Assembly: GCA_031416075.1 (NCBI GenBank)
Contig: JANOSY010000046.1
Location: 1 to 57,462 of the forward strand
Source of the DNA: Candidatus Tenderia sp.
Lineage (GTDB): Bacteria; Pseudomonadota; Gammaproteobacteria; Tenderiales; Tenderiaceae
Direction: 5' to 3'
Length of the DNA stretch: 57,462 nt
The number at the start of each line of letters is the position of its first letter. Position 1 is the stretch's first letter. A program made the translations under genes and the position numbers. Below, piece by piece: positions 4,234 to 29,911 of the stretch. The notes below the pieces were generated by a model that searched no databases, was not told the DNA's origin, and saw only the letters and a list, made by a program, of their open reading frames with translations.

Positions 4234-5817
4234 TCAGCCGTTGATACTAAGTTTGTTCAAGCGGTAGTGCAGCTGGCGACTGGTCATGCCTAACACCCGC
4301 GCAGCAGCAGTTTTATTGCCGCGAGATTGATGCAGCGCATAGATAATGGCATCACGTTCATCAGACCGCACCTTGGTATAGGGGCGCATGGTGAAATCAA
4401 CATTCGCGGGCAACTCCACCTCAGTGGTGGGTTTAGCGGGGATAGTTTCATCGATCTCAATCCCAGACTCATCCGTCAGGGTGGCACTGATCATATCGTT
4501 GCTAACCACTTCGGCATCACTCATCACCACCAGCCGTTCAATTACGTTTTCCAGCTGCCGTACATTGCCTGGCCATTCGTACTGTTTCAACTGTTCTAGT
4601 GCGCGGTTGTTCAACACCACGTTACGTTTGTGCAGTTGATTGCAACGGTTAAGAAAATAGAGCGCCAGCAGTTCGATATCATCCTTGCGCTGGCGCAGCG
4701 GTGGCAACTGAATGCGGATGACGTTTAAACGGTAGAAGAGGTCAAGGCGAAAATTACCGCTGTTAACCCCCTCCTCCAGCCGTTTATTGGTGGCGGTGAT
4801 GATCCGTACATCAACACTGATCTCGCGGCTGCCACCAACCCTCTGCAAGGTCTTCTCCTGCAAAACACGCAACAGTTTTGCTTGCAGATCAAATGGCATG
4901 TCGCCGATCTCATCAAGAAACAGTGTGCCGCCCGTGGCCATCTCAAACTTACCTGCACGGCTGGCCGTTGCGCCAGTAAAGGCACCCTTCTCATGACCAA
5001 ACAGTTCGCTCTCCAGCAGGTTGGCGGGGATGGCGGCACTGTTAATACAGACAAACGGTTTGTCGCGGCGGTTGCTGGCGAGGTGGATCATCCGGGCAAA
5101 ACGCTCTTTGCCGGTGCCCGACTCGCCGACCAGCATGACGGTTACTTCCGATACGGCGGCCTTGCGCGCCTGCTCGATAGACTGACGTAACGTGGCGCTT
5201 TTACCAATAATGCCGTGTACCGCCGTTGTCTCCTGCTGGCGATCTTTCAGCGCCCTATTCTCCTGCTTCAGGCGGCGGGTCTTCTGATCGACCAGGTCAC
5301 GGATATGCAGCGCCTGTCCCACCAGGGTGGCCATGATCTGTACAATAAAAAGATCGCTGTCAAAATGACACTGCAACTCTTCCATCCGATGGACCGCCAT
5401 CACCCCCACCGGCACATCGTCACGCATAATGGGCACCGCCATATAAGCGACCGTCATGTCCTTTATAGGGCTAGCAGTAAACACCCGTGCCACATAGGTA
5501 GGCTCTTTGCTGATGTCGGGGATCAGGGCGATCTCGCCCGTCGACATTACCCGTCCTGTTACCCCCTCCCCCAGTGCATACAGTCCACGCCCTATCTCAT
5601 CCTCACTCAGACCATGGCTGTGGGCAATACGCAGCACACCATCGCTCAAATCGGGCAGAACAACCCGACCCTTTGTTAAACCAAGCCTGGTTGATAGTAG
5701 TGCCAGGATTCCTTCAATGGACTCACTCGGATTGAGTGTCCGCCCAATCAATCTTGAGGCATCCAAAATCACCTCAGCAATCTGAGGTGATAAGGTTGGA
5801 CAGTGTGTCGGTATCAT
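4234..5817 (-). CDS. Sigma-54-dependent transcriptional activator, GAF-AAA+-HTH (NifA-like architecture)
   Basis: N-terminal GAF ([10 protein letters not shown]), Walker [42 protein letters not shown]-terminal Fis HTH ([20 protein letters not shown]). Confidence 0.9.
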
Positions 5818-5953
5818 AGCGCTGCTCCCAAAGAGGTTGCCAAATCCACATCAACCACAGTGAACTGCGTAGGACAATAGTAGCGCAGACGTTTTACGGT
5901 TTAATGACAAACAACCATCTATCTCTGCATATCACCCCTACACAACAGCTCCA

Positions 5954-5969
5954 TGCATAGAAGGTTCCA
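5954..5969 (-). promoter_or_regulatory. Putative sigma-54 -24/-12 promoter of the NifA-like gene
   Basis: Minus strand reads TGGAACCTTCTATGCA (GG-N10-GC), about 140 bp upstream of the start codon. Confidence 0.5.
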
Positions 5970-6053
5970 CCCTTTCACGAAGGGCAATCTCCTTGATATT
6001 TAAATCAAAATCAAGCATTACAGTTGATTTAACAGTACATTGGTGGGATAACT

Positions 6054-6082
6054 TTGGTGCAACAGCACTGTTAATGCACCAA
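6054..6082. promoter_or_regulatory. Inverted repeat containing NtrC-like half sites
   Basis: TTGGTGCA...TGCACCAA about 90-110 bp upstream of the 5954-5969 sigma-54 motif. Half-site orientation is inverted relative to the canonical NtrC palindrome. Confidence 0.3.
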
Positions 6083-6112
6083 GGTAGCCGACAACAAAGG
6101 GGGATTTACGAA

Positions 6113-6152
6113 ATCCCCGGAAGGCTTTAACAACAGCAGAGCCTCCGGGGAT
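6113..6152 (-). terminator. GC-rich hairpin downstream of the small membrane protein gene
   Basis: ATCCCCGGAAGGCT...AGCCTCCGGGGAT. An overlapping hairpin GGGGATTT-ACG-AAATCCCC lies at about 6100-6118. Confidence 0.5.
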
Positions 6153-6168
6153 GGGTCGGGCAACAACG

Positions 6169-6408
6169 TTAGCGATGTGCATGCAGTGCCATCCGTGTTC
6201 TGGCTGGCATATGCAGTTTCAGCTGATCAAGCAGAGAGTAGACAGGGTCCCAGGCGATGGTGGCAGTGATCAGCGGGTAGATTGCCAACAGCGCTAGCCA
6301 GGGGGCCGCAATAGCCGGGGTAAAGGCGGCGGCCACAAGCAGACTGCCAACAGCAACACGGAGAGTGCGTGCCAGTGGTTTTAGATTGTCAGATGGTGAG
6401 CTAAACAT
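6169..6408 (-). CDS. Small membrane protein, DUF2892/YgaP-like
   Basis: Two hydrophobic segments with N...R.LR..VG and W-D-P-V-Y-S-L-L (family-like xCP/DPxY). RBS GAGGA upstream. Preceded by a sigma-54 promoter. Confidence 0.7.
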   Translation of the reverse strand: MFSSPSDNLKPLARTLRVAVGSLLVAAAFTPAIAAPWLALLAIYPLITATIAWDPVYSLLDQLKLHMPARTRMALHAHR

Positions 6409-6470
6409 GATTTAATCCTCATCTATTCGGTTAAGGGAAGCAGAGTTTTTCACATCCGCACCCTAACCAA

Positions 6471-6606
6471 TGCAGAGGCCGTGCCATCATCTACAACATG
6501 GCTTTTAACCGTTTAAAATCAATTGATTACCAAAAAAACAGTGGCAGTCACAGTCATGCAGTGACAATGTCAAAACAATAACAATGTCGACAATGTCCAC
6601 ATTGTC
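6471..6606 (-). promoter_or_regulatory. Complete sigma-54 promoter: -24/-12, IHF site and upstream activator sequences
   Basis: TGGCACGGCCTCTGCA on the minus strand (6486-6471). IHF consensus match AATCAATTGATTA (6517-6529). TGT-N10-ACA (6568-6583) and TGT-N11-ACA (6585-6601) lie within ACAATGTC repeats. Confidence 0.75.
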
Positions 6607-6731
6607 AGCACCAATTCTAGTAATTTTGAATAGATCAATAAAAAACTGGGCCACCCGCTAACACCATTAGATGATATATATCTCCCCCCACCCTATTATG
6701 GACAACCACTAACCCGCGGTGAATATGGATT

Positions 6732-8516
6732 GTGAATAAGATAAACAGACCTCAGGCCCGTAAAGTCGAGCTAGGTGAACTGGCCGAACAGCTGCTCACC
6801 GATGGATTGATTAATCAGGATCAACATGAAAACCTGAAACTGAAGGCCCGCTTTCGCGACGTTGGCCAGCTCCACCCCCTGCTGCTAATTGCCGACCAGG
6901 GGTTAAAATCGGCGCTGCCACCACACAAAGTACTGAATCAAGAGTTTCTGACCGAGTGGCTGGCGCAAAAGGCCGACATGCCCTACTACCGCGTCGATCC
7001 ATTAAAGATCGATGCCGCCGCCGTGACCACCGTGGTCTCCCACTCCTATGCTGAGCGCAACAAACTACTGCCCGTAGAGAACAGCACCAGCTACGTCGTC
7101 ATTGCCACCGCCGAACCTTACGACACCCAGTGGGTGGCGGAGCTGTCACGCATACTGAATAAAGATATCCGGGTCGTGGTGACCAACCCGGCAGAGATCA
7201 ACCGCTATCTGGTGGAGTTTTACAGCGTCTCCCGCTCGGTGCTTGGGGCCGCAGACCAGCGCGGCAGCGCGATGGGGGATATCTCCAACCTTGAACAGCT
7301 GCTGGAGCTGGGCAAAAAGGGCAGCCTCGATGCCAACGATCAACACGTCGTCAGCATCGTCGACTGGCTGCTGCAATACGCCTTTGAACAGCGCGCCAGC
7401 GACATTCACATCGAACCGCGCCGCGACAAGGGCAACATCCGTTTCCGTATCGACGGCATGTTACATCTGGTCTACCAGCTGCCCGCCACCATCCTCTCTG
7501 CCGTCATCAGCCGCCTGAAGATTTTGGGCCGTATGGATCTGGCAGAGAAACGTCGCCCCCTCGATGGCCGGTTAAAGACCCGCTCACCCAGCGGTGATGA
7601 GGTGGAGCTACGCCTCTCCACCCTACCCACCGCCTTTGGCGAAAAGATGGTGCTACGTATCTTCAACCCTGATGTACTGGTGAAAAACTTCGCCGCCCTC
7701 GGTTTTAACAAAACAGAAGAGAGCCAGTGGCAACAGATGATCCAGCAGCCCAACGGCATCATCCTGGTCACCGGCCCCACCGGTTCGGGCAAAACCACCA
7801 CCCTCTACTCCACCCTCAAACAGCTGGCCAAACCTGAACTGAACCTCTGCACCATTGAGGATCCCATAGAGATGGTGGTGCCGGAATTTAACCAGATGCA
7901 GGTGCAGCACAACATCGATCTCGACTTTGCCAGCGGTGTGCGGGCGCTGTTGCGGCAGGATCCGGACATCATCATGGTCGGCGAGATTCGTGACATGGAG
8001 ACGGCTGAGATGGCGATCCAGGCGGCACAGACCGGCCATCTGGTCATCTCCACCCTGCATACCAACGACGCCGTCTCCGCCATCACTCGTCTGCTCGACA
8101 TCGGCGTACCACGTTACATGATCAGCGCATCACTGCTGGGTGTGGTGGCGCAACGGCTGGTGCGCAACCTCTGCCCCCACTGCAAACAGCCGGTCACCAC
8201 CGATGCCGAACTCTGGAATAACCTAAGCCGCCCCTGGAAAGGGCCCATGCCTGAGCAAGTCATGGGGCCAGTCGGCTGCGCCGAGTGCCGCAACACCGGC
8301 TATGCAGGGCGTAGCGGTATCTACGAGATGTTACTGATGTCAGGCAAGATCAAACGACTGGTCCACACCAGCGATGGCGACGTTGCCGCCATCCGCCTGC
8401 AGGCGCAAAAAGAGGGGATGCGGCCATTGCGGATCAACGGCATTCAAAAAGTGGCCAACGGCACCACCTCACTAGCCGAGGTGGCGCGGGTCTCACCCCT
8501 GAGTGATGATGAGTAG
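6732..8516 (+). CDS. GspE/PulE/PilB family secretion ATPase
   Basis: ASDIHIEP, GPTGSGKTT, TIEDPIE, LRQDPDIIMVGEIRD, TGHLVISTLHTN, CxxC...CxxC Zn motif. GTG start. Confidence 0.92.
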   Translation: MNKINRPQARKVELGELAEQLLTDGLINQDQHENLKLKARFRDVGQLHPLLLIADQGLKSALPPHKVLNQEFLTEWLAQKADMPYYRVDPLKIDAAAVTTVVSHSYAERNKLLPVENSTSYVVIATAEPYDTQWVAELSRILNKDIRVVVTNPAEINRYLVEFYSVSRSVLGAADQRGSAMGDISNLEQLLELGKKGSLDANDQHVVSIVDWLLQYAFEQRASDIHIEPRRDKGNIRFRIDGMLHLVYQLPATILSAVISRLKILGRMDLAEKRRPLDGRLKTRSPSGDEVELRLSTLPTAFGEKMVLRIFNPDVLVKNFAALGFNKTEESQWQQMIQQPNGIILVTGPTGSGKTTTLYSTLKQLAKPELNLCTIEDPIEMVVPEFNQMQVQHNIDLDFASGVRALLRQDPDIIMVGEIRDMETAEMAIQAAQTGHLVISTLHTNDAVSAITRLLDIGVPRYMISASLLGVVAQRLVRNLCPHCKQPVTTDAELWNNLSRPWKGPMPEQVMGPVGCAECRNTGYAGRSGIYEMLLMSGKIKRLVHTSDGDVAAIRLQAQKEGMRPLRINGIQKVANGTTSLAEVARVSPLSDDE

Positions 8517-8524
8517 CCTGAGCG

Positions 8525-9181
8525 CTATTTGTCACTACCGGAAGGTGTGAGTTGTGGTGGCGACTTTTCAGCAGCGGGCACCACAGCGCCCCCTTTAAAT
8601 AGCGCAACCACTTTGGCAAACAGCAGTTTAATACCACGCCAAAGTTTGGGTAACAGCCAGACCATTACCGCCACCATCACCACCAGCGCCAGCAGGAACA
8701 ACACGGGGTAGTGCAGCGCTGTCCACAATCCCAACACCACGGCAACATCTTCAGTGATGGAGGCGATCCAGTTGCTGACCGGCTCTGGCGAGGCGTTGAT
8801 CAAGACCCGGCTACCGGCCTTGGTGGCGTGGCTGGCGGATGAGAGCGTACCGCCAATCAACAGCGCCGCCAGCTCCGCCCCCTGCCCCAGATCACCCACA
8901 GCGCCCGCCGCCAGCAGCGCCCCGGCGGGGATGCGAATAAAGGTGTGCAGCGTATCCCAGAGCGTATCAACCCCAGGAATCTTATCGGCAAAAAACTCCA
9001 CACAATACATCACCGCTGCTGCCGTCATCACCAGCGGATCAGTACAGATCTGCAACCCCTCCGGCAGCGCGATGCTGCCACTACTGCCCAGCCAGCCAAC
9101 TACAAAAATGGCGGCGTAGAGGTTGATACCACTGGCCCAGGCAACCCCCATGCTGAGGGCGATAATCTCAACAACACCCAT
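8525..9181 (-). CDS. DUF4126 family membrane protein
   Basis: WASGINLY, EFFADKIPGVD..WD.LHTFIR, SPEPVSN.IAS..ED motifs. Confidence 0.85.
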   Translation of the reverse strand: MGVVEIIALSMGVAWASGINLYAAIFVVGWLGSSGSIALPEGLQICTDPLVMTAAAVMYCVEFFADKIPGVDTLWDTLHTFIRIPAGALLAAGAVGDLGQGAELAALLIGGTLSSASHATKAGSRVLINASPEPVSNWIASITEDVAVVLGLWTALHYPVLFLLALVVMVAVMVWLLPKLWRGIKLLFAKVVALFKGGAVVPAAEKSPPQLTPSGSDK

Positions 9182-9280
9182 TAACGATACCTCGGTTAAG
9201 ATGAGGAGCAGCGGATCAGGGTAGCACCCTGACCATTACCACAATGTAAAAGAGTGTTTGTCATCTCCGCCATTCCAACA

Positions 9281-10060
9281 TCAGGCCAATCCCACACAAC
9301 GCTGCCGCACCCGTTCAAACAGGCAGACTGCTACTGCCGCCGCCACATTCAGTGACTCAACCTTACCGGGCATAGGAATACGGATATTACGGGTAGCACA
9401 GGCGGCCAGCGTATCGCTCAACCCAGCCCCCTCATTGCCAAACAGAAACGCCATCGGTCCACGCAGATCGAGGTCATAAAGCGCCTCTTCAGCATCCAGC
9501 CGCGTGGCAACCACCATCGCCATCTGAGCGGCACGCGCCAACAGATCCTGCTGTTCGTAAATCGCCACCACAAAGTGCGCCCCCATCGCCACCCGCAACA
9601 CCTTGGGCGACCACGCCTCGGCACACCCCTTGGAGAGATAGATTGCATCTACACCTGCCGCTGCCGCCGTACGCAAAATAGCGCCGATGTTGCCGGGATC
9701 CTGAATATTCTCCAGCAACACCGCACACTCGGGCGTGCGCTCGTCTGGCTGGGGGATGGTATAGAGCGCCAAAATGCCCACCGGCGTTTCAACGGGGGAG
9801 AGTTCATCAAACAGCACTGCACCCAGTTCAATAACAGGCGCAGTCGGGAACCATTCAACGCAGCGCTGAATCTCGGCATCAGCACCACTGCCCTGCCGCA
9901 CAATCAACAACTCAACGGCACCATTCACATCGGCCAGCGCCTGTAACAGATGCACACCATCCAGTAGTGTCTGGCCACATTTGCGCCGCTCGCGGGCATT
10001 GCTCGCCAGTTTCTTCAACTGTTTGTACTGGGGATTATCGGCGGAGGTGATCTGTTTCAT
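9281..10060 (-). CDS. TrmH/SpoU family RNA methyltransferase
   Basis: ITS.DN, QDPGNIGAILRTA, FGNEGAG, IPM.G.VESLNVA SPOUT motifs. ATG at 10060 preferred over TTG at 10069. Confidence 0.9.
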   Translation of the reverse strand: MKQITSADNPQYKQLKKLASNARERRKCGQTLLDGVHLLQALADVNGAVELLIVRQGSGADAEIQRCVEWFPTAPVIELGAVLFDELSPVETPVGILALYTIPQPDERTPECAVLLENIQDPGNIGAILRTAAAAGVDAIYLSKGCAEAWSPKVLRVAMGAHFVVAIYEQQDLLARAAQMAMVVATRLDAEEALYDLDLRGPMAFLFGNEGAGLSDTLAACATRNIRIPMPGKVESLNVAAAVAVCLFERVRQRCVGLA

Positions 10061-10081
10061 GTTTGGCAATGACCAATTCGA

Positions 10082-10207
10082 TGTAGGGTGGGGTAGGAAT
10101 GTTTTTTATTCCGTAACCCACCAAGCGTGCCGACAGGCACACCTTTAAAAATATTTAGTATTGCTTCGCAAGGCTTGGTGGGCACAAAAAAGCGTGTCCA
10201 CCCTACA
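10082..10207. repeat. GTAG-type REP doublet (REPIN-like)
   Basis: TGTAGGGTGG at the left end and CCACCCTACA at the right end, with internal CCCACCAAGC / GCTTGGTGGG inverted pair. Intergenic. Confidence 0.7.
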
Positions 10208-10208
10208 T

Positions 10209-11834
10209 TTATTGCACTCTGCTTACCATACTCAACGCCAGCGCCTCTGCCACCTCAATACCATCCACCGCCGCAGAGAGAATGCCACCGGCATAGCCTG
10301 CCCCTTCACCGGCAGGATAGAGTCCCTTGGTATTGATGCTCTGATAGTCATCACGATTACGTTTGATACGCAGCGGTGACGAGGTGCGTGTCTCCACCCC
10401 GGTCAACACTGCGTCATGCATGGCAAACCCTTTTATCTGTCGATCAAAGGCGGGCAGCGCTTCACGGATTGCTTCAATGGCGTAGTCGGGCAATACTGAA
10501 CTTAGGTCGGTCAGATGGACACCCGGTGTATACGAGGGCTGCACACTGCCCAACGCTGTAGATGGTTTGTCTTTGATAAAGTCGCCCACCAATTGCCCAG
10601 GTGCTTCGTAATTACTGCCACCCAAGACAAAGGCACGGGACTCCAGATCGCGTTGCAGTTCTATACCCGCCAACGGATGATCACTGGGGAAATCCTCCGG
10701 TGTGATGCCCACCACAATGCCACTGTTGGCATTGCGTTCATTGCGTGAATATTGGCTCATGCCGTTAGTGACGACGCGTCCCTCTTCTGAGGTGGCCGCC
10801 ACCACCGTGCCGCCAGGACACATACAAAAGCTATAAACACTCCGGCCATTTTTGCAGTGGTGCACCAGCTTATAGTCCGCCGCGCCCAGATCGGGATGAC
10901 CGGCAAACGTGCCATAACGGCACTGATCGATCAGCGCTTGTGGGTGTTCAATGCGAAAACCGATCGAGAAGGGTTTGGCCTCAACATAAACGCCGCGCTC
11001 ATAAAGCATCTGAAAGGTATCGCGGGCGCTGTGGCCAATCGCCAGCACCACATGGTCGGTCTCGATCCGTTCGCCACTGGCCAACACCACGCCACACACC
11101 TGTTTTTGATCGTGGCCATCGTCAATGTCGATATCCGTCACACGGCTCTCAAAACGGAACTCACCACCGAGACTGACAATCTCCTCGCGCATTTTTTCCA
11201 ACATGCCCACCAGACGAAAGGTACCGACATGGGGTTTACTGATGTGCAGGATCTCCTCCGGTGCACCCGCCTTCACAAACTCACGCAATACCTTCACACC
11301 TAAGTGGCGTGGGTCTTTGATCTGGGTATGCAGCTTGCCGTCAGAAAAGGTCCCTGCCCCGCCCTCGCCAAATTGCACATTCGATTCGGGATCAAGTTTG
11401 TGGTTACGCCACAGCCCCCAGGTATCCTTGGTGCGCTGCCGCACCTCTTTGCCACGTTCCAGGATCAGTGGTTTGAACCCCATCTGCGCCAGAATCAGCG
11501 CCGCCATAAAACCACATGGACCACTACCGATGATCACCGGGCGGGACTTAAGATCGCTCGGGGCATGGGTCACAAACGTGTATTCGGTCTCGGGCGTCGG
11601 TTTGATATGGCTGTCACCGCTAAATTGCTGCAACAGCTGCACCTCATCCGCCACCTCCACATCGAGTGAATAGACAAACAGAATCGCACTGCGCTTGCGG
11701 GCATCAAAACCACGCCTGGCTACCGTGAAGCCATGCAATACCTCGGGGCTGATCTGCAAGCGGTCAATAACCGCCTCCCGCAGTGCATCGGGCGAGTGGT
11801 CAAGCGGCAGTTTGATCTCTGTCAGTCGTAACAT
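10209..11834 (-). CDS. NAD(P)/FAD-dependent oxidoreductase (COG2509-type)
   Basis: IIGSGPCG, SNVQFGEGGAGTFSDGKL, SFCMCPGG, GVETRTSSP, GEGAGYAGGILSAAVDG. Confidence 0.9.
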   Translation of the reverse strand: MLRLTEIKLPLDHSPDALREAVIDRLQISPEVLHGFTVARRGFDARKRSAILFVYSLDVEVADEVQLLQQFSGDSHIKPTPETEYTFVTHAPSDLKSRPVIIGSGPCGFMAALILAQMGFKPLILERGKEVRQRTKDTWGLWRNHKLDPESNVQFGEGGAGTFSDGKLHTQIKDPRHLGVKVLREFVKAGAPEEILHISKPHVGTFRLVGMLEKMREEIVSLGGEFRFESRVTDIDIDDGHDQKQVCGVVLASGERIETDHVVLAIGHSARDTFQMLYERGVYVEAKPFSIGFRIEHPQALIDQCRYGTFAGHPDLGAADYKLVHHCKNGRSVYSFCMCPGGTVVAATSEEGRVVTNGMSQYSRNERNANSGIVVGITPEDFPSDHPLAGIELQRDLESRAFVLGGSNYEAPGQLVGDFIKDKPSTALGSVQPSYTPGVHLTDLSSVLPDYAIEAIREALPAFDRQIKGFAMHDAVLTGVETRTSSPLRIKRNRDDYQSINTKGLYPAGEGAGYAGGILSAAVDGIEVAEALALSMVSRVQ

Positions 11835-23224: not shown

Positions 23225-25195
23225 ATGAAAAATCTCTGGGACGATAACGAAGCCAAACAGTACAGCGACGAGCTCGGCTTGCGTGTCTACAGCTCACGGC
23301 TATTAGGGCGTGATACCACCCTAGTGCTGCACGGCGGCGGCAACACCTCGGTCAAGATCACGCAGAAAAATATCGTCGGTGAAGAGCAGCAGCTGTTGTG
23401 TGTTAAAGGCAGCGGCTGGGATCTTGAGACCATCGACCGCCCCGGCTTTCCCGCCGTTAAACTCGACCACCTGATCAAACTCGCCAAGCTCGAATCGTTA
23501 AGCGACCCGCAGATGGTCAACGAACTGCGTACCCACATGACCGATGCCGCTGCACCGACACCTTCAGTCGAAGCGATCCTGCACGCCACCCTGCCCTACA
23601 AGTTTGTTGATCATACCCACGCCGATGCGCTGGTCACCATCACCAATACACCGAGCGGCCTGGAAAAAATCAAACAGATTTATGGCGATACGATTGTCAT
23701 CGTGCCCTACATCATGCCCGGCTTCGACCTCGCCCGACTCTGCGCCATCGAGTTTGAAAAGCAGCACAACGCCAATACCATCGGCATGGTGCTGATGAAC
23801 CACGGCATCTTCTCCTTTGCCGATGACGCCAAAGAGTCTTACGAACGCATGATCAAACTTGTCGGCATGGCCGAGGCATACATCAAATCACAAAGCGCCT
23901 GGGAGTTGGATTACGACGCGCCCGCAAAAAACGATGTTGATCCTCTCGCACTCGCCGAACTGCGCCGTGATATCTCCAAGGCCGCAGGCTTCCCGGTAGT
24001 GCTGCATAGTCAGCGCGATGCCAAGGCGATGAGCTTCTGCAACCGCAGCGACGTAAGCAAGATCGCACAACAAGGACCCGCCACACCCGACCACGTCATC
24101 CGCACCAAACGTCTGCCACAGGTCGGGCGCGATGTTGCCGCCTATGTCGAAATATACACAAACTATTTCAACCAACATGCCGCTGATTCTCGTGAACCCA
24201 AAACCATGCTCGACCCGGCGCCACGTGTCATGCTCGACAAAGCGCTGGGCATGATCAGCGTCGGCAAGAGCGCCAAAGAGGCGCAGATCGTCAGCGACAT
24301 CTACGACCACACCATGGATATCATCGCCCGCGCCGAACTGCTGGGCGGCTGGCAGGCGCTCTCAGCAAAACATATCTTCGACATGGAGTACTGGGATCTG
24401 GAGCAGGCAAAACTGCGCAAGGGCGGCAGCGCACCGCAGTTCCAGGGCGAGATCGCACTCATCACCGGCGCCGCCTCCGGCATCGGCAAGGCGTGTGTCG
24501 AATCGATGCTCAAACGCGGCGCGGCCGTGATTGCCATCGACATCGACCCCAAGATCGAAAACCTCTTCAAACGCGCCGACTACCTCGGCATCACCTGCGA
24601 TGTCGCCGACGAAACCAAACTGATCGCAGCATTGAAGAAAGGCGTCGCCCACTTCGGCGGCCTCGACATGGTCGTGCTCAACGCCGGCATCTTCCCCGGC
24701 GGCAAACGCATCGACAATCTCAGCAGTGACGAGTGGCGCAAGGTGATGCAAATCAACCTCGACCCCAACCTGGTGTTGATGCGCGAGACCTATCCATTCC
24801 TGAAACTGGCACCGAAAGGTGGCCGCGTCGTCGCCATGGGTTCCAAAAACGTCCCCGCCCCCGGCCCCGGCGCAGCCGCCTACTCCGCCACCAAAGCCGC
24901 GCTGACCCAGATGACCCGCATCGCCGCGCTCGAATGGGGAGCAGAGAACATCCGCATCAACACACTGCATCCCGATTGTGTATTTGATACCGGCATCTGG
25001 ACCGACGAAGTACTCGCTGCACGCGCCAAACACTACGGTCTGACAGTGGAGCAGTACAAACGCAAGAATATATTGAAGACCGAAGTCACCAGCCATGATG
25101 TAGCCGAACTTACCTGCGAACTCTGCGGACCGCTATTCGCAAAAACCACAGCTGCGCAGATCCCCATCGACGGTGGCAATGAGAGGGTGATTTAA
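23225..25195 (+). CDS. Bifunctional class II aldolase / short-chain dehydrogenase (RhaD-SDR fusion type)
   Basis: SRLLG, HGGGNTS.K, KGSGWDL, PSVE, DHTH.D, NHG, TPDH, EYW.LE.AKL, then SDR TGAASGIG, NAG, YSATK. Confidence 0.92.
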   Translation: MKNLWDDNEAKQYSDELGLRVYSSRLLGRDTTLVLHGGGNTSVKITQKNIVGEEQQLLCVKGSGWDLETIDRPGFPAVKLDHLIKLAKLESLSDPQMVNELRTHMTDAAAPTPSVEAILHATLPYKFVDHTHADALVTITNTPSGLEKIKQIYGDTIVIVPYIMPGFDLARLCAIEFEKQHNANTIGMVLMNHGIFSFADDAKESYERMIKLVGMAEAYIKSQSAWELDYDAPAKNDVDPLALAELRRDISKAAGFPVVLHSQRDAKAMSFCNRSDVSKIAQQGPATPDHVIRTKRLPQVGRDVAAYVEIYTNYFNQHAADSREPKTMLDPAPRVMLDKALGMISVGKSAKEAQIVSDIYDHTMDIIARAELLGGWQALSAKHIFDMEYWDLEQAKLRKGGSAPQFQGEIALITGAASGIGKACVESMLKRGAAVIAIDIDPKIENLFKRADYLGITCDVADETKLIAALKKGVAHFGGLDMVVLNAGIFPGGKRIDNLSSDEWRKVMQINLDPNLVLMRETYPFLKLAPKGGRVVAMGSKNVPAPGPGAAAYSATKAALTQMTRIAALEWGAENIRINTLHPDCVFDTGIWTDEVLAARAKHYGLTVEQYKRKNILKTEVTSHDVAELTCELCGPLFAKTTAAQIPIDGGNERVI

Positions 25196-25293
25196 GCGAC
25201 CACACCATCGAATCAATGGGCGGGCTCATTCTCACATTCGTAGGGTGCGTATAATCGTGGCAGGGGAACCAATCCTTTAAGGGACTTGTATTG

Positions 25294-26703
25294 ATGCTGA
25301 AGCACCTATTTCTTAGACCAGAAATGCTTGGTCGCCTGATATTTTCTAAACCAGACGGACAGTCCTATTACGTTCAAGCAACTTCTGAGCAGAAAACCAG
25401 ACGCGCGCTCCCCGAGGAGATCGTTCGACAATTGTTCGTGCTGTCTCTACTTCATGATTATAAATACCCGGAGGGGTTAATCCGCTTGGAATTACCTATC
25501 CAGATGGGTAGAGAAAAAAAGCGTGCTGATATTGCTGTATTGGAGGCTAATGGCAATGTCAAAATTATCATAGAGGTCAAGGTAGAGCATGACAAAGACT
25601 CTATGCCGCAGCTTATGTCATACATGGCAATTACGGGGGCTTTGTATGGAGCAATCGTTTCCAGTGCTGAAATTATTTGCGTCAAACGGCTATCAACCCA
25701 GGATATAGTACCGATAAGTGACTTACCTATTTTCTTGGGAAATGACACCTTGTCTGAGCCTGAAATACAGGCGAAGCACAATCCACAACCAAGTTTTCCA
25801 GGCACCCCGTGCGCCTCCATTGAAGTAGAAGGCTTTGAGCGAAATACTCCAACCCACGCCAAGATCACAATCAAAGGGCACACACTTCAACTCTCTAACG
25901 TAGAGCTAGAGTCATACAAAAAACTTAGGCAGAAGTTTCTGATAGCAGGTGTAGCCCTTAACCCGAACGTCAAACAGGCGGAGTGGTTTGATATGTTTAG
26001 TCAGCTGCTAGAGACCACGCCGATAAATGCCATGCCTATTTTAGTGGAAAGTGACACCTCGTCTGAGCCTGAAATACAGACGGATTACAATCCACAACCA
26101 AGTCTGCCAGGCACTCCGTGCGCCTCCATTGAAGTAGAAGGCTTTGAGCGAAATACCCCAACCCACGCCAAGATCACAATCAAAGGTCACACACTTCAAC
26201 TCTCCAACGTAGAGCTAGAGTCATACAAAAAACTTAGACAGAAGTTTTTGATAGCGGGCGCGGCCCTTAACCCGAATGTCAAACAGGCAGAGTGGTTTGA
26301 GATATTTAGTCAGCTGCTAGAGCATACACCGATTACTTATCTGTCCAGTCCACAGCGGGGTAGTGCTGTTGATGAGAAGGCACTGGCAGCTATCGAGGAA
26401 GCATTGGGGCAAGGGCAGCCTGGATTCTCGGGTGGTTGGATCAGTTCATTTGCGCTGGATAGGTTGCTGGATAGACTCAAGATCAGTGTTCCGCGCACTA
26501 ATCGCAAAAAATTATTAAACGCGCTTGGCTATGAGTGGCACCCTAACCTCCCTGATGGGCGTTTGAACAACCCGATCAATGACCCTTCTGGCGATTTCGG
26601 CAGACCGAGATTGTTTATTTCTAAGGAGCATATGACTGCAAGATGGGTTAATGGTAGTGATATCGCCAGGGCGTATCTTGCAGATCAAGTTTCGGGGAGT
26701 TGA
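25294..26703 (+). CDS. Type I restriction HsdR N-terminal-like PD-(D/E)xK nuclease fused to a tandem-duplicated domain and a C-terminal domain
   Basis: PEEIVRQ...YKYP...E.PIQMG...RADIAV...IIIEVK...QLMSY matches the HSDR_N-type nuclease pattern. 103-aa internal tandem repeat. No helicase motifs. Confidence 0.75.
   Translation: MLKHLFLRPEMLGRLIFSKPDGQSYYVQATSEQKTRRALPEEIVRQLFVLSLLHDYKYPEGLIRLELPIQMGREKKRADIAVLEANGNVKIIIEVKVEHDKDSMPQLMSYMAITGALYGAIVSSAEIICVKRLSTQDIVPISDLPIFLGNDTLSEPEIQAKHNPQPSFPGTPCASIEVEGFERNTPTHAKITIKGHTLQLSNVELESYKKLRQKFLIAGVALNPNVKQAEWFDMFSQLLETTPINAMPILVESDTSSEPEIQTDYNPQPSLPGTPCASIEVEGFERNTPTHAKITIKGHTLQLSNVELESYKKLRQKFLIAGAALNPNVKQAEWFEIFSQLLEHTPITYLSSPQRGSAVDEKALAAIEEALGQGQPGFSGGWISSFALDRLLDRLKISVPRTNRKKLLNALGYEWHPNLPDGRLNNPINDPSGDFGRPRLFISKEHMTARWVNGSDIARAYLADQVSGS
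25726..26333 (+). repeat. In-frame tandem duplication, 309-bp period
   Basis: 25726-26024 aligns with 26035-26333. A 51-aa core (PGTPC...KFLIAG) is identical at protein level. Confidence 0.95.
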
Positions 26704-26832
26704 GGTTGGTGCCAATAACGTCAATGAGACAAACCACGTTACCGGCTTGTCTCCGAGCAGCAAGTAGGCTGGACTTGGAGTTTTTCGAAAAAACTGGGGC
26801 ATTTGATTGAACAATATCTATGGGTGGTGTTT

Positions 26833-27513
26833 ATGACTGAATTGAAAGATCGAATTGAAGATGTTCTTTCCTTGGTGGAACAGAATTTTGAATTTTTCCA
26901 TGTTGGGATGTTTTTTGATGATTACGCAAAGCGTAATGATCTCTCATCAAAGGTTGTACCAATCGAACTATCTCTTGAAGATGAAAAAGTGTTTAGGCCG
27001 GGTGATATAGTCAAAGATTCATTGCGTGACTATTTTATAAAAGACAGATCGACCGTCTTTGGTTACATGGTCGCATGGAATGCATTTCGTGGAATCGGCA
27101 TGGCAATGAAGGAGGGACTGCAAGACAATCCAAACCTTAAGGATTTCATAAAGAAAAAGCTCGGGAACAGATATGAACATTATCACGCCATTTTGAGTTT
27201 TATTAGAAATGTGTTGTCGCACAACATACACGACGAAACACAGCTGAAAGAACAAAACTACAAAGATACCCGAACATATTTTGTGAGGGATGTTTGTTCA
27301 ACAGGAGTTGCAACACTTTCCATTAACTATGCCGATGATTTTCCAGGAACGAATCTTCCAAGTGGCTATGGATTCAATCTTGAAGTTAATTTCAATTTAT
27401 TAAATCCTGGAAAACGTTTTATTGAGGTTATTTCTGAATCGCATTTATATATGTTTTCTGAACTTTGCTTCATTTTAGTTAAAGCATTTCGGAACGAAGC
27501 GCAGCCAAGCTGA
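26833..27513 (+). CDS. Hypothetical AT-rich protein with HEPN-like R-x4-H motif
   Basis: FIRNVLSHN motif. Visibly AT-rich relative to flanking core genes. ATG at 26833. Confidence 0.6.
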   Translation: MTELKDRIEDVLSLVEQNFEFFHVGMFFDDYAKRNDLSSKVVPIELSLEDEKVFRPGDIVKDSLRDYFIKDRSTVFGYMVAWNAFRGIGMAMKEGLQDNPNLKDFIKKKLGNRYEHYHAILSFIRNVLSHNIHDETQLKEQNYKDTRTYFVRDVCSTGVATLSINYADDFPGTNLPSGYGFNLEVNFNLLNPGKRFIEVISESHLYMFSELCFILVKAFRNEAQPS

Positions 27514-27530
27514 GGTGCATTCCATGCACC
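27514..27530. repeat. REP-like palindrome
   Basis: GGTGCAT-TCC-ATGCACC immediately after the TGA of the preceding gene. Confidence 0.5.
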
Positions 27531-27617
27531 AATGACAACTGAAGCATAGACCATCGAATACAGAGATTGATGCCGGATATTTTTTGGATCGCAAAGGTAA
27601 AAATTGGAGCTGATCTT

Positions 27618-27851
27618 ATGAACATCAACCTGAACCTAGAGGCTTTGGAAGCGGAGGTTCTTAAACTCTCCTCTGCTGATCGTTCCCATCTTTTAGAGCG
27701 GCTCATTGGCAGCCTTGATGCAGATGCTGCAATCGATGCGGCATGGGAACAAGAGGCCGAGCGCCGTCAGATGGATATCGAATCCGGGAAGGTCACCCTG
27801 GTTTCTGGTGAAGAGGCGATGCCCCGTTTAAGAGAGAAGTTGAAACGGTGA
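27618..27851 (+). CDS. Addiction module antitoxin (TIGR02574 / Unstab_antitox type)
   Basis: L.LS..DR..L.E.L..SLD...AW..EAERR..DIESGKV pattern. Overlaps the toxin start (GTGA). Confidence 0.88.
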   Translation: MNINLNLEALEAEVLKLSSADRSHLLERLIGSLDADAAIDAAWEQEAERRQMDIESGKVTLVSGEEAMPRLREKLKR

Positions 27852-28141
27852 CTTTTTCACTGCACCCGGAGGCAGAAAGAGACATTGCCGATGCAATTGA
27901 TTTTTATCTTCGGAATGCAGGCTTGATTGTCGCCGAGAGGTTTTTGGATGAGTTTTACAGGGCGGCCCGCTTTCTCGTAGAGAATCCTGAGGCTGGTACA
28001 CCATCGTTGCGTGATCGCCGCACGTTTCCTCTCCATATTTTTCCGTATTCAATTGTGTATGTACCATCACGTGGAGAGATCTGTATTCTAGTCGTCAGAC
28101 ATCAGCGCCGTCAGCCAAGTTACGGTGTCGAACGACAGTAA
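27848..28141 (+). CDS. RelE/ParE family toxin
   Basis: LHPEAE.D..DA..FY, NPE.G, FPYSIVY, I.V.V.HQRR.PSY. Confidence 0.88.
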   Translation: MTFSLHPEAERDIADAIDFYLRNAGLIVAERFLDEFYRAARFLVENPEAGTPSLRDRRTFPLHIFPYSIVYVPSRGEICILVVRHQRRQPSYGVERQ

Positions 28142-28240
28142 CGAAGACATTGAGTAAATTCGCTCTACATTATAGGCTGTGACCGCATGAGCGAACATGG
28201 CAATAAACAAGATACTTAAACAACGGAAACTAAAAACACC

Positions 28241-29911
<1,671 letters not shown>

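Follow-up and report, generated by a model that had tools for sequence, protein, structure and literature searches.

A Rare Bacterial Nuclease with the C-Terminal Tail of Phage Primase-Helicases: A Candidate Origin-Directed Restriction Enzyme

Introduction

Odn (Gp88) of the vibriophage ICP1 is a chimeric nuclease whose DNA-binding domain is 42% identical to the RepA_N domain of a satellite (PMC8263062). It binds and cuts the origin of replication of this satellite, PLE, in an iteron-dependent manner (PMC8263062). The subject of the present work is a bacterial gene whose product may follow a similar logic. The gene resides on contig C46 of a Candidatus Tenderia sp. genome (3.49 Mb in 95 contigs, with a completeness score of 99.98%), and the window analysed here is this complete contig of 57 kb. 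It encodes a protein of 470 amino acids (aa) in which a restriction-type nuclease is joined to a tail domain that is otherwise found at the C-terminus of phage primase-helicases.

Several replication initiators provide the background for the role of such a tail. The C-terminal winged-helix domain of SaPI Rep recognises the iterons of the origin (PMC9371898), and the C-terminal domain that Cch2 carries, when isolated, binds its own origin specifically (PMC7581432). Vaccinia virus D5, a helicase of the DUF5906 type, is made up of three parts, namely a collar in which there is a small sheet of three strands, an AAA+ domain, and a C-terminal domain that resembles the RFX-DBD (PMC9611036).

The Candidatus Tenderia protein begins with a PD-(D/E)xK nuclease similar to those of HsdR-N and type IIG enzymes, followed by two beta3-alpha3 modules and a C-terminal winged-helix domain. 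Its catalytic residues are conserved, its nuclease and tail have recognisable homologues, the tail is swapped among members of the family, and the gene stands in an islet that was inserted between two chromosomal genes. By analogy with Odn, the reading favoured here is that the protein would be a bacterial counterpart of the ICP1 enzyme, that is, a nuclease aimed at phage replication by means of a captured initiator domain. A probability of roughly 45% is assigned to this reading.

Architecture of the Protein

The reading frame starts at a TTG codon. The database form, P0001, has the next codon, the ATG at 25294, as its start and comprises 469 aa. An AlphaFold2 model of the 470-aa protein, built on 27 family sequences, has a mean predicted local distance difference test (pLDDT) score of 84. 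It contains four confident domains (aa 1-146, 178-245, 281-348 and 358-468) that are connected by disordered linkers, and these limits are approximately those that had been proposed from the sequence in an initial annotation of the window. The prim-pol domain and the superfamily 3 (SF3)/AAA+ core (DUF5906), which accompany the tail in phage proteins, are both absent. The coordinates of all features are collected in Table 1.

The C-Terminal Tail Domain

The initial annotation had likened the C-terminal domain to the C-terminus of some phage primases and D5-type replication proteins. This likeness is borne out, the homologous part being the last ~110 aa of phage primase-helicases. The nearest relative is P0028, a protein of 793 aa with prim-pol, NrS-1 HBD and DUF5906 domains. 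Its extreme C-terminus is 44% identical to the tail over 169 aa (BLASTP E 3e-37), a value that rises to 56% over the 107 columns of the domain. The C-terminus of P0029, likewise a protein of ~790 aa with these three domains, is 43% identical over 131 aa, and identity to the C-termini of phage primase-helicases generally lies at 43-47% (P0028, P0029 and the primases of named phages). An exhaustive HMMER search with aa 275-470 yielded 473 representative proteins at E<=1e-3. Scanning of the first 77 of these relatives revealed DUF5906 in 53, the NrS-1 HBD in 37, a VapE-like domain in 24 and HSDR_N_2 in seven.

Viral sequences give the same result. Within IMG/VR, 350 of 375 pattern-matched stretches were confirmed as relatives of the tail. 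The tail is also matched by 90 named phage records, including those of phages of Klebsiella (65), Rhizobium (eight), Edwardsiella (five) and Escherichia (three). At least 80% of the domain is covered in 81 of the 90 records, mostly at the end of a coding sequence annotated as “DNA primase”. The primase of Edwardsiella phage PEi21, for example, has the architecture NrS-1 HBD plus DUF5906. A Foldseek search of BFVD places phage primases and helicases at the top of the matches (best E 3.7e-5).

For the structure of this region, a separate model of aa 275-470, comprising the second module and the tail (pLDDT 93), was compared with representative structures by a VIA search, of which the best 50 rows were listed. 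Most of these 50 matches over model residues 82-178 are winged-helix domains, including those of MCM8 (WH), RAP30 and TFIIIC (eWH), at Z scores of 4.2-5.6. On the basis of the model, the tail is predicted to have a winged-helix fold. When all PDB sequences were searched with a profile of the tail, no solved structure was retrieved (best E 0.52). Likewise, a Foldseek search of the PDB with the model of module and tail gave nothing at E<=0.001, with winged-helix proteins among the weak rows.

The domain is strikingly conserved across phage primases. The columns that are at least 90% conserved in 147 sequences include the motifs G-F-x-G-G-W-[VI]-S-S and L-G-Y-x-x-H-P-x-L-x-x-G-R. A resident primase-helicase cognate to the tail was sought in the host and rejected, as a genome-wide search found neither a DUF5906 match nor a second copy of the tail domain. 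The nuclease gene is therefore not part of a resident replicon.

The Nuclease Domain

The N-terminal domain had been read as a nuclease of the HsdR-N type, an assignment upheld by Pfam. The family HSDR_N_2 (PF13588) covers aa 41-146 with an E value of 1.5e-21 and 77 bits against a cut-off of 25. A genome-wide Pfam scan locates the same family at 25411-25728, consistent with the match at the protein level. The motifs named at the outset are real, as they are invariant in all 27 family proteins of the alignment: P41, E42, R46, Q47, D80, E95, K97, Q107, L108, S110 and Y111. Three of these residues, D80, E95 and K97, constitute the catalytic D...ExK site.

The model of this domain is confident, with a mean pLDDT of 88-95 in each 10-residue block beyond the first. 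Its Foldseek matches in the PDB include BsaXI (8w0p, E 9e-4), Cas4, DrdV (7lvv), BpuSI (3s1s) and a fragment of a Vibrio HsdR (3h1t). Taken together, the profile match, the invariant catalytic residues and the similarity in fold to restriction and Cas4-type nucleases indicate that the nuclease looks active.

The domain stands without the usual partners of such nucleases. The Pfam scan of the 470-aa protein finds no helicase or ATPase family (ResIII, DEAD and others) and no methyltransferase family, and only two N6_Mtase matches occur in the genome, on contigs C8 and C93. Both are off contig C46, and the absence of a motor and of a nearby methylase, as initially described, is thus real. Since the protein has no superfamily 2 (SF2) motor, methyltransferase or specificity domain, the choice of target must come from its other domains.

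No system-specific model in PADLOC (PADLOC-DB 2.0.0, 2023) matches the protein; the closest profiles are the nuclease end of MTase_I models, e.g., PDLC03034 at positions 38-165 of 672 (E 9.5e-20). NCBIfam gives nothing significant.

The Nuclease Family and Its Exchanged Tails

Proteins of this architecture are rare. A collection of 5.8 billion proteins gave 44 matches, of which 26 are further proteins with the architecture, and a representative protein library contains a few more. The best 80 loci were kept from a scan of 185,579 species genomes. Six of these (L003-L008) have the full architecture and one (L028) holds a fragment, the other 73 having the nuclease domain only. Loci L004-L008 are attributed to beta- and gammaproteobacteria and to Elusimicrobia. 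Within the taxonomic family of the host, the gene is present in two of 17 genomes, its own included. Viral contigs were considered as a further source and rejected: the seven matches in them are all restricted to the nuclease domain and include no member of the family.

The nuclease and the module are kept in all members of the family, with the tail as the variable part. A tail of the DUF5906 type is present in 17 of the 32 module-bearing proteins. The tails of P0021, P0017 and P0006 match other phage proteins (Table 1). These single matches are weak, yet all of them fall on the last residues of different primase-helicase classes, and this is therefore regarded as the strongest new result of the analysis. 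Members of the family have exchanged tails that correspond to those of three or more classes of phage primase-helicase, among them DUF5906, DUF927 and Prim-Pol plus VapE. Such exchange goes beyond the proposal made in the initial annotation. The family would appear to exploit whatever role these tails play in primase-helicases. When searched as a whole protein against named phages by tblastn, P0006 gave matches of the nuclease domain only, and tails of the P0024 type matched no phage record.

In a tree of DUF5906-type tails, the 17 nuclease-borne tails are scattered (10 changes) with weak branch support. Repeated capture of this type of tail was dropped as a candidate after an approximately unbiased (AU) test, which omitted 41 short rows whose architecture is not established and did not reject one clade (p 0.479).

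Some members carry additional pieces. Between nuclease and module, P0009 (aa ~161-257) and P0010 (aa ~153-327) have an extra insert, duplicated in P0010, with the motif G-Y-x-W-D-x-R-I-H ... D-G-[ST]-W-R-Y-K-[KR]-G. The insert matches phage families without an assigned function, phrog_11133 (E 9e-21), phrog_27827 and phrog_29341, which marks it as another apparently phage-derived piece in the family. In P0007, a helicase-associated (HA, PF03457) domain at aa 430-489 follows the primase-type tail (E 5.9e-22).

Two loci deserve separate description. The Gallionella-labelled locus L028 holds at 8001-8165 only a fragment of the nuclease gene, corresponding to aa 7-61 at 65% identity. Beside it (8441-9697) is a 418-aa HNH_2 protein that also matches type II restriction HNH models in PADLOC, and at 9933-10337 there is a 134-aa open reading frame (ORF) whose likeness to PIN was judged by eye only. 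The fragment has the look of a copy that has decayed, with defence-like surroundings. At locus L004, two overlapping ORFs of 187 and 468 aa (4670-5233 and 5217-6623) lie upstream of a relative that is 82% identical. Pfam assigns no family to either of them, and what they match in PADLOC and PHROG is negligible; the pair may be a two-gene cassette of no assigned function.

The Tandem Modules

The two units of ~100 aa noticed at first between nuclease and tail are the product of a direct DNA repeat, whose copies are 90% identical and spaced 309 nt apart. Each unit contains a module of ~70 aa, in which three strands are followed by three helices in the predicted structure. The number of copies varies across the family. 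P0002 has one, and P0009 has two that resemble each other, which indicates an independent duplication.

The resemblance of the repeat core to phage primase-like proteins, also initially suggested, was not confirmed by sequence. A module hidden Markov model (HMM) run against 187 proteins gave 32 matches, all of them members of the nuclease family and none a primase-helicase, nor was the module detected in any of the 99 tail-bearing proteins of at least 500 aa. A word-seeded search with the module alone found eight proteins, every one again from the nuclease family. Matches in PHROG are faint (E 8e-4 to 9e-3, one of them annotated as primase) and a search of the ESM Atlas gave no usable match.

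In the VIA search described above, the module is matched best by SaPIbov1 Rep in its N-terminal tier (8tch_B residues 55-142, Z 6.2, root-mean-square deviation 2.9, 77 residues aligned), followed by Cch of SCCmec (5dgk_B residues 32-112, Z 6.1, deviation 2.5, 74 aligned). Both matches span the entire module and lie in the N-terminal part of the respective helicase. The likeness of the modelled module to the N-terminal tier of SaPI Rep and Cch is considered suggestive, as a Z score under 8 can also arise from a common arrangement. The collar domains of NrS-1 and D5 are absent among the 50 best matches listed for module and tail.

The Islet and Its Neighbouring Genes

The gene is part of a low-GC islet, with a GC content of 0.43-0.47 across 25-28 kb compared to 0.55-0.60 in the flanks. 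The islet contains the nuclease gene, an ORF of 236 aa (orf236) and a ParDE-like pair. In the sister genome G003, the short-chain dehydrogenase/reductase (SDR)-type gene and the ABC-F gene are adjacent and no islet is present (L177, G003:C50, 1030-1240). The ABC-F start is ~150 bp after the SDR-type stop codon at this empty site, which was aligned to 25150-25300 and 28130-28260. This alignment, together with the break points of the DNA matches, sets the bounds of the islet at about 25196-28202. Genome G005 carries the same islet. In G002 (L175, G002:C62, 747-1375), the toxin-antitoxin pair adjoins the ABC-F gene behind a different ORF of 124 aa; the site between the SDR-type and ABC-F genes therefore acts like a hotspot for cargo. 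Neither an integrase or transposase nor terminal repeats were noticed within the islet, the ORF list being without any, and there are no inverted repeats of at least 20 nt within 25000-27600.

Table 1. Features of the nuclease locus (positions in the window) and tails of family members matched to phage proteins.
Feature	Position	Strand	Description
Low-GC islet	25196-28202		3 kb, between SDR/aldolase-like gene and ABC-F gene
Nuclease gene	25291-26703	+	470 aa from TTG at 25291
PD-(D/E)xK nuclease domain, HSDR_N_2 type	25291-25728	+	aa 1-146; from Pfam, invariant residues and fold
Tandem DNA duplication	25711-26319	+	Creates both modules and linkers; copies 25711-26010 and 26020-26319
Module copy 1	25813-26025	+	aa ~175-245; module HMM aa 175-244; “ITIKG” core; pLDDT >90
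Module copy 2	26122-26334	+	aa ~278-348; module HMM aa 278-347
C-terminal winged-helix domain (predicted)	26362-26694	+	aa ~358-468; homologous to tail of phage prim-pol/DUF5906 primase-helicases
Downstream gene orf236	26803-27513	+	236-aa ORF; database form P0188, 226 aa
ParDE-like toxin-antitoxin pair	27567-28141	+	Unstab_antitox 27567-27851 (E 1.7e-13); ParE_toxin 27848-28141 (E 2.1e-13)
Tail of P0021	aa 271-385		Matches a 990-aa protein from Pseudomonas phage Rollin at aa 859-976; E 1e-5 by tblastn and 7e-10 in pairwise alignment; donor with DUF927 and weak prim-pol
Tail of P0017	aa 280-357		aa 659-731 (very end) of a 731-aa primase, Synechococcus phage S-LBS1; tblastn E 5e-3, pairwise E 3e-9; donor Prim-Pol and VapE-like
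Tail of P0006			C-end of phrog_47 “DNA primase”; E 0.003, weak

The downstream gene orf236 is joined by 16 more homologues, none of which bears a name or belongs to a Pfam family. Its motif R-x4-H-N (“RNVLSHN”) is invariant in all 17 (R125, H130 and N131). The sequence R-x4-6-H is the hallmark motif of HEPN RNases. The ESM Atlas offers the cluster HEPN pEK499_p136 as a lead (score 0.90, rank 25), and neither Pfam (searched with all 17 homologues), PADLOC, NCBIfam nor PDB sequence profiles match the protein. From its sequence, orf236 possibly encodes a HEPN protein, and the islet may thus hold a gene of the abortive-infection type that is separate from the nuclease. A role as obligate partner of the nuclease was rejected, given that, among the loci of the nuclease family, homologues are present only at the near-identical L003 and are absent at L004-L008. 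PADLOC also has no match for the toxin-antitoxin genes.

At the other loci of the family, the neighbours are TPR, HerA_C, HTH_3, PmbA and HNH proteins and unassigned ORFs. PADLOC finds a PD-Lambda-2_B-like HTH in L006, a HerA/mad8-like protein in L007 and an HNH protein in L028. A conserved defence-island context, for which the initial annotation had proposed a survey, was not found: the relatives share no genes, and defence-like neighbours are scattered over some of the loci only. The argument from defence islands is therefore weak.

Proposed Function and Alternative Explanations

The favoured reading may be set out as follows. The protein would be a single-protein, methylation-independent, restriction-type nuclease of a rare family. 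Its cutting head is a PD-(D/E)xK domain such as type I HsdR and type IIG enzymes carry at their N-terminus. Next come one or two beta3-alpha3 modules, most like the N-terminal ring tier of initiator-helicases of mobile elements, and then the tail, a predicted winged-helix domain that is exchangeable and was captured from phage primase-helicases, where it forms the C-terminal end. Through this tail, the nuclease would share its DNA target with the initiator-helicase of the phage, i.e., origin DNA. DNA of an incoming phage or other mobile element would then be cut at or near the start of replication. As host DNA would be without such sites, it would be spared and a methylase would be unnecessary; the missing methylase is thereby explained. 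With a different tail, the enzyme would be directed against a different group of phages. In favour of the reading are the conserved nuclease, the homology of the tail to primase-helicases, its winged-helix matches and its exchange within the family, along with the published binding of origins by SaPI Rep and Cch2, the precedent of Odn and the lack of a DUF5906 gene or second tail copy in the host. The patchy presence in two of 17 genomes, the empty site in G003, the low GC content and the ParDE-like pair count for it as well, as islet-like features. A more general version, put forward tentatively, describes a modular “initiator-mimic” restriction enzyme. Here, a constant chassis of nuclease and collar would receive its tail from whichever class of primase-helicase is the threat (DUF5906, DUF927, VapE or others) and would either cut at the replication start or board the replisome.

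It is we who infer that the tail binds DNA, and origin DNA specifically, that the enzyme cuts there and that the cell is protected as a result. Several observations weigh against targeting of the origin. The tail is strikingly conserved, which suits a common partner or a structural role as well as, or better than, the recognition of diverse origins. Over 500 bp of sequence downstream of the primase gene, repeated 8-mers show no general excess at 78 viral loci (80 loci, two of which were dropped for short or incomplete flanks or genes). Nine of the 78 loci were at p<=0.05 when compared to shuffles, and the mean maximum count was 2.26 downstream vs. 2.18 upstream. Iterons just downstream of the viral primase genes were consequently rejected. 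The layout of SaPI and Cch2, in which iterons come right after the gene, is therefore not evident, and the origin may lie elsewhere. The structural matches of the module are middling (Z ~6) and within the range that is open to common arrangements. Capture of the DUF5906-type tail on more than one occasion is not shown, as one clade of the 17 tails is not rejected by the AU test. Finally, no neighbours are common to the six other loci, defence-like genes occur at some of them only, and no PADLOC system model matches the nuclease.

A rival explanation, which gives concrete form to the sensor or decoy idea of the initial annotation, is that the phage primase-helicase itself is what the tail binds, perhaps with the help of the collar-like modules, so that the protein would take its place there as a pseudo-subunit without a motor. 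As such a replisome-docking decoy, the protein would be recruited to, or switched on at, the phage fork, or it would poison the helicase ring. This is rather unlikely in our estimation, and targeting of origin DNA is ranked somewhat higher; the latter has an experimental precedent in the Odn of ICP1 (PMC8263062). Docking would account for a protein that lacks the ATPase of mobile-element initiator-helicases yet has parts resembling the accessory tiers on either side of it, with the module similar to the N-terminal tier of SaPIbov1 Rep and Cch at Z 6.2 and 6.1 and the tail corresponding to the C-terminal domain of primase-helicases. It is described for SaPI Rep that the C-terminal domain is domain-swapped onto the ATPase of the neighbouring protomer and that the N-terminal tier is part of the ring (PMC9371898). 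Across phage primases, the tail has many residues that hardly vary, which suits a conserved protein partner, and the lack of an iteron excess at the 78 viral loci points in the same direction. The module, however, has no detectable homology to primase-helicases, including the 99 tail-bearing proteins mentioned above, and the collars of NrS-1 and D5 are not among the 50 best structural matches listed. No nuclease is known to us that becomes a pseudo-subunit of a helicase ring, and this also speaks against docking.

Prediction of a complex between the tail and the helicase core of P0028 (aa 335-668) returned “weak support” for docking with a score of 0.42. Three runs gave 0.42, 0.00 and 0.49, the best of three controls gave 0.00, and the pLDDT of the partner was at least 78. 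The mark for support is reached by 58 of 80 solved complexes and by two of 110 mismatched pairs. At scores of 0.60 or below, it is reached by seven of the 80 solved complexes and by both of the passing mismatches, and a pass in this range is more often wrong than right unless the complex is likely beforehand. The prediction is thus weak and its runs disagree (contact agreement of at least 0%); moreover, P0028 is the nearest available primase rather than a known cognate. The initial idea of a nuclease with phage-replisome-like modules stands in part. A motor-less and methylase-less nuclease with a tail homologous to primase-helicases is what was found, and the homology claimed for the repeats is unsupported by sequence.

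Two further explanations place the protein outside of host defence against phages. The gene could be a selfish or inter-element weapon, a mobile nuclease similar to a homing endonuclease that cuts competitors or empty sites for its own spread or maintenance. Single-gene insertions in unrelated contexts and distant phyla, at loci that share no neighbours, are in keeping with this, as are the addiction-type ParDE-like pair in the islet, the decayed fragment in L028 (aa 7-61) and the derivation of Odn from a homing-endonuclease family (PMC8263062). It is nonetheless improbable, given an islet in which no integrase, transposase, terminal repeats or long inverted repeats were noticed, seven viral matches confined to the nuclease domain, and a gene that is neither within nor beside replication genes. 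Alternatively, the protein may serve in DNA repair or replication restart of the host, or be a functionless, decaying fusion with a leftover primase-like tail. PD-(D/E)xK and winged-helix architectures also occur in repair enzymes, and no defence family matches the protein. The gene is, however, patchy (two of the 17 family genomes) and rare (six full loci and one fragment among the best 80), with an empty site in G003 and a low-GC islet. Its ORFs are intact and the catalytic residues are invariant across 27 proteins. Repeated tail swaps and independent module duplications are marks of conflict genes and not of housekeeping or decay, which makes this explanation very improbable.

Novelty and Significance

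In the literature searched, the term “origin-directed nuclease” was found only in the work on ICP1 and PLE. Searches for PF13588/HSDR_N_2 gave no description of the nuclease family; the mentions, judged by title, are a survey of PD-(D/E)xK proteins and a genome report. Nor was a description of it returned when anti-phage nucleases were sought that carry an origin-binding domain or the winged helix of a primase. In the literature searched, Odn was the only nuclease found for which the borrowing of an enemy initiator domain for targeting has been shown experimentally.

If the favoured reading is true, initiator mimicry would be a general strategy and not a one-off, and the working of a restriction-type nuclease without a methylase would be explained. 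It would also provide a handle on the role of the C-terminal tail in DUF5906 primases, which are widespread in phages. If the more general version holds, innate immunity that steals domains from the replication machinery of the enemy would constitute a new general principle. The swappable tail further suggests a specificity module that is naturally reprogrammable.

Comparison with Known Systems

With type I HsdR and the type IIG/IIB enzymes, the 470-aa protein shares the nuclease family, the fold and the D...ExK site (PF13588; BsaXI, BpuSI, DrdV and the HsdR fragment). HsdR differs in that it has an SF2 motor behind the nuclease, which is lacking here, and in the expected hsdM/hsdS partners, with no N6_Mtase match present on the 57-kb contig. 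Type IIG and MTase_I proteins include methyltransferase and target-recognition domains in the same polypeptide, whereas the 470-aa protein is without either.

The likeness to DUF5906-type primase-helicases concerns the C-terminal tail, which is homologous to that of the 470-aa protein and has the winged-helix fold predicted for it. The alpha protein of phage P4 has a winged-helix C-terminus after its primase and helicase that binds origin repeats, and we take the same role to be probable for the tail donors, with P4 alpha serving as a lead only. The N-terminal tier of SaPIbov1 Rep and Cch bears a suggestive structural likeness to the module. Set against SaPI Rep, Cch and Cch2, D5 and NrS-1, the 470-aa protein is without the ATPase core and the primase and has a nuclease in their place. 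Binding of the origin has been shown for SaPI Rep and Cch2, yet these are not sequence relatives of the tail (PMC9371898, PMC7581432).

The comparison with Odn is the closest in logic. Both are single-protein chimeras of an endonuclease and a domain that is ~40-56% identical to part of the replication initiator of an enemy (PMC8263062). The two are not homologous, and are set apart by the domains described for Odn and by Pfam, which finds only HSDR_N_2 in the 470-aa protein (PMC8263062). Odn combines a T5orf172 nuclease with an N-terminal RepA_N domain, whereas here the HSDR_N_2 nuclease is N-terminal and followed by one or two modules and a C-terminal winged helix (PMC8263062). Odn is encoded by a phage and aimed at the satellite PLE; the 470-aa gene is chromosomal in bacteria and its tail is that of phage primase-helicases (PMC8263062). 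Binding and cutting of the origin are proven for Odn, and both are proposed for the 470-aa protein (PMC8263062). What would be new here is an Odn-like logic that is host-encoded, uses an HsdR-N nuclease and, as its sequence relatives suggest, draws its tails from several classes of primase-helicase. In the case of Odn, it is on the side of the enemy that initiator modules are swapped, whereas in this family the tails are swapped on the side of the nuclease (PMC8263062).

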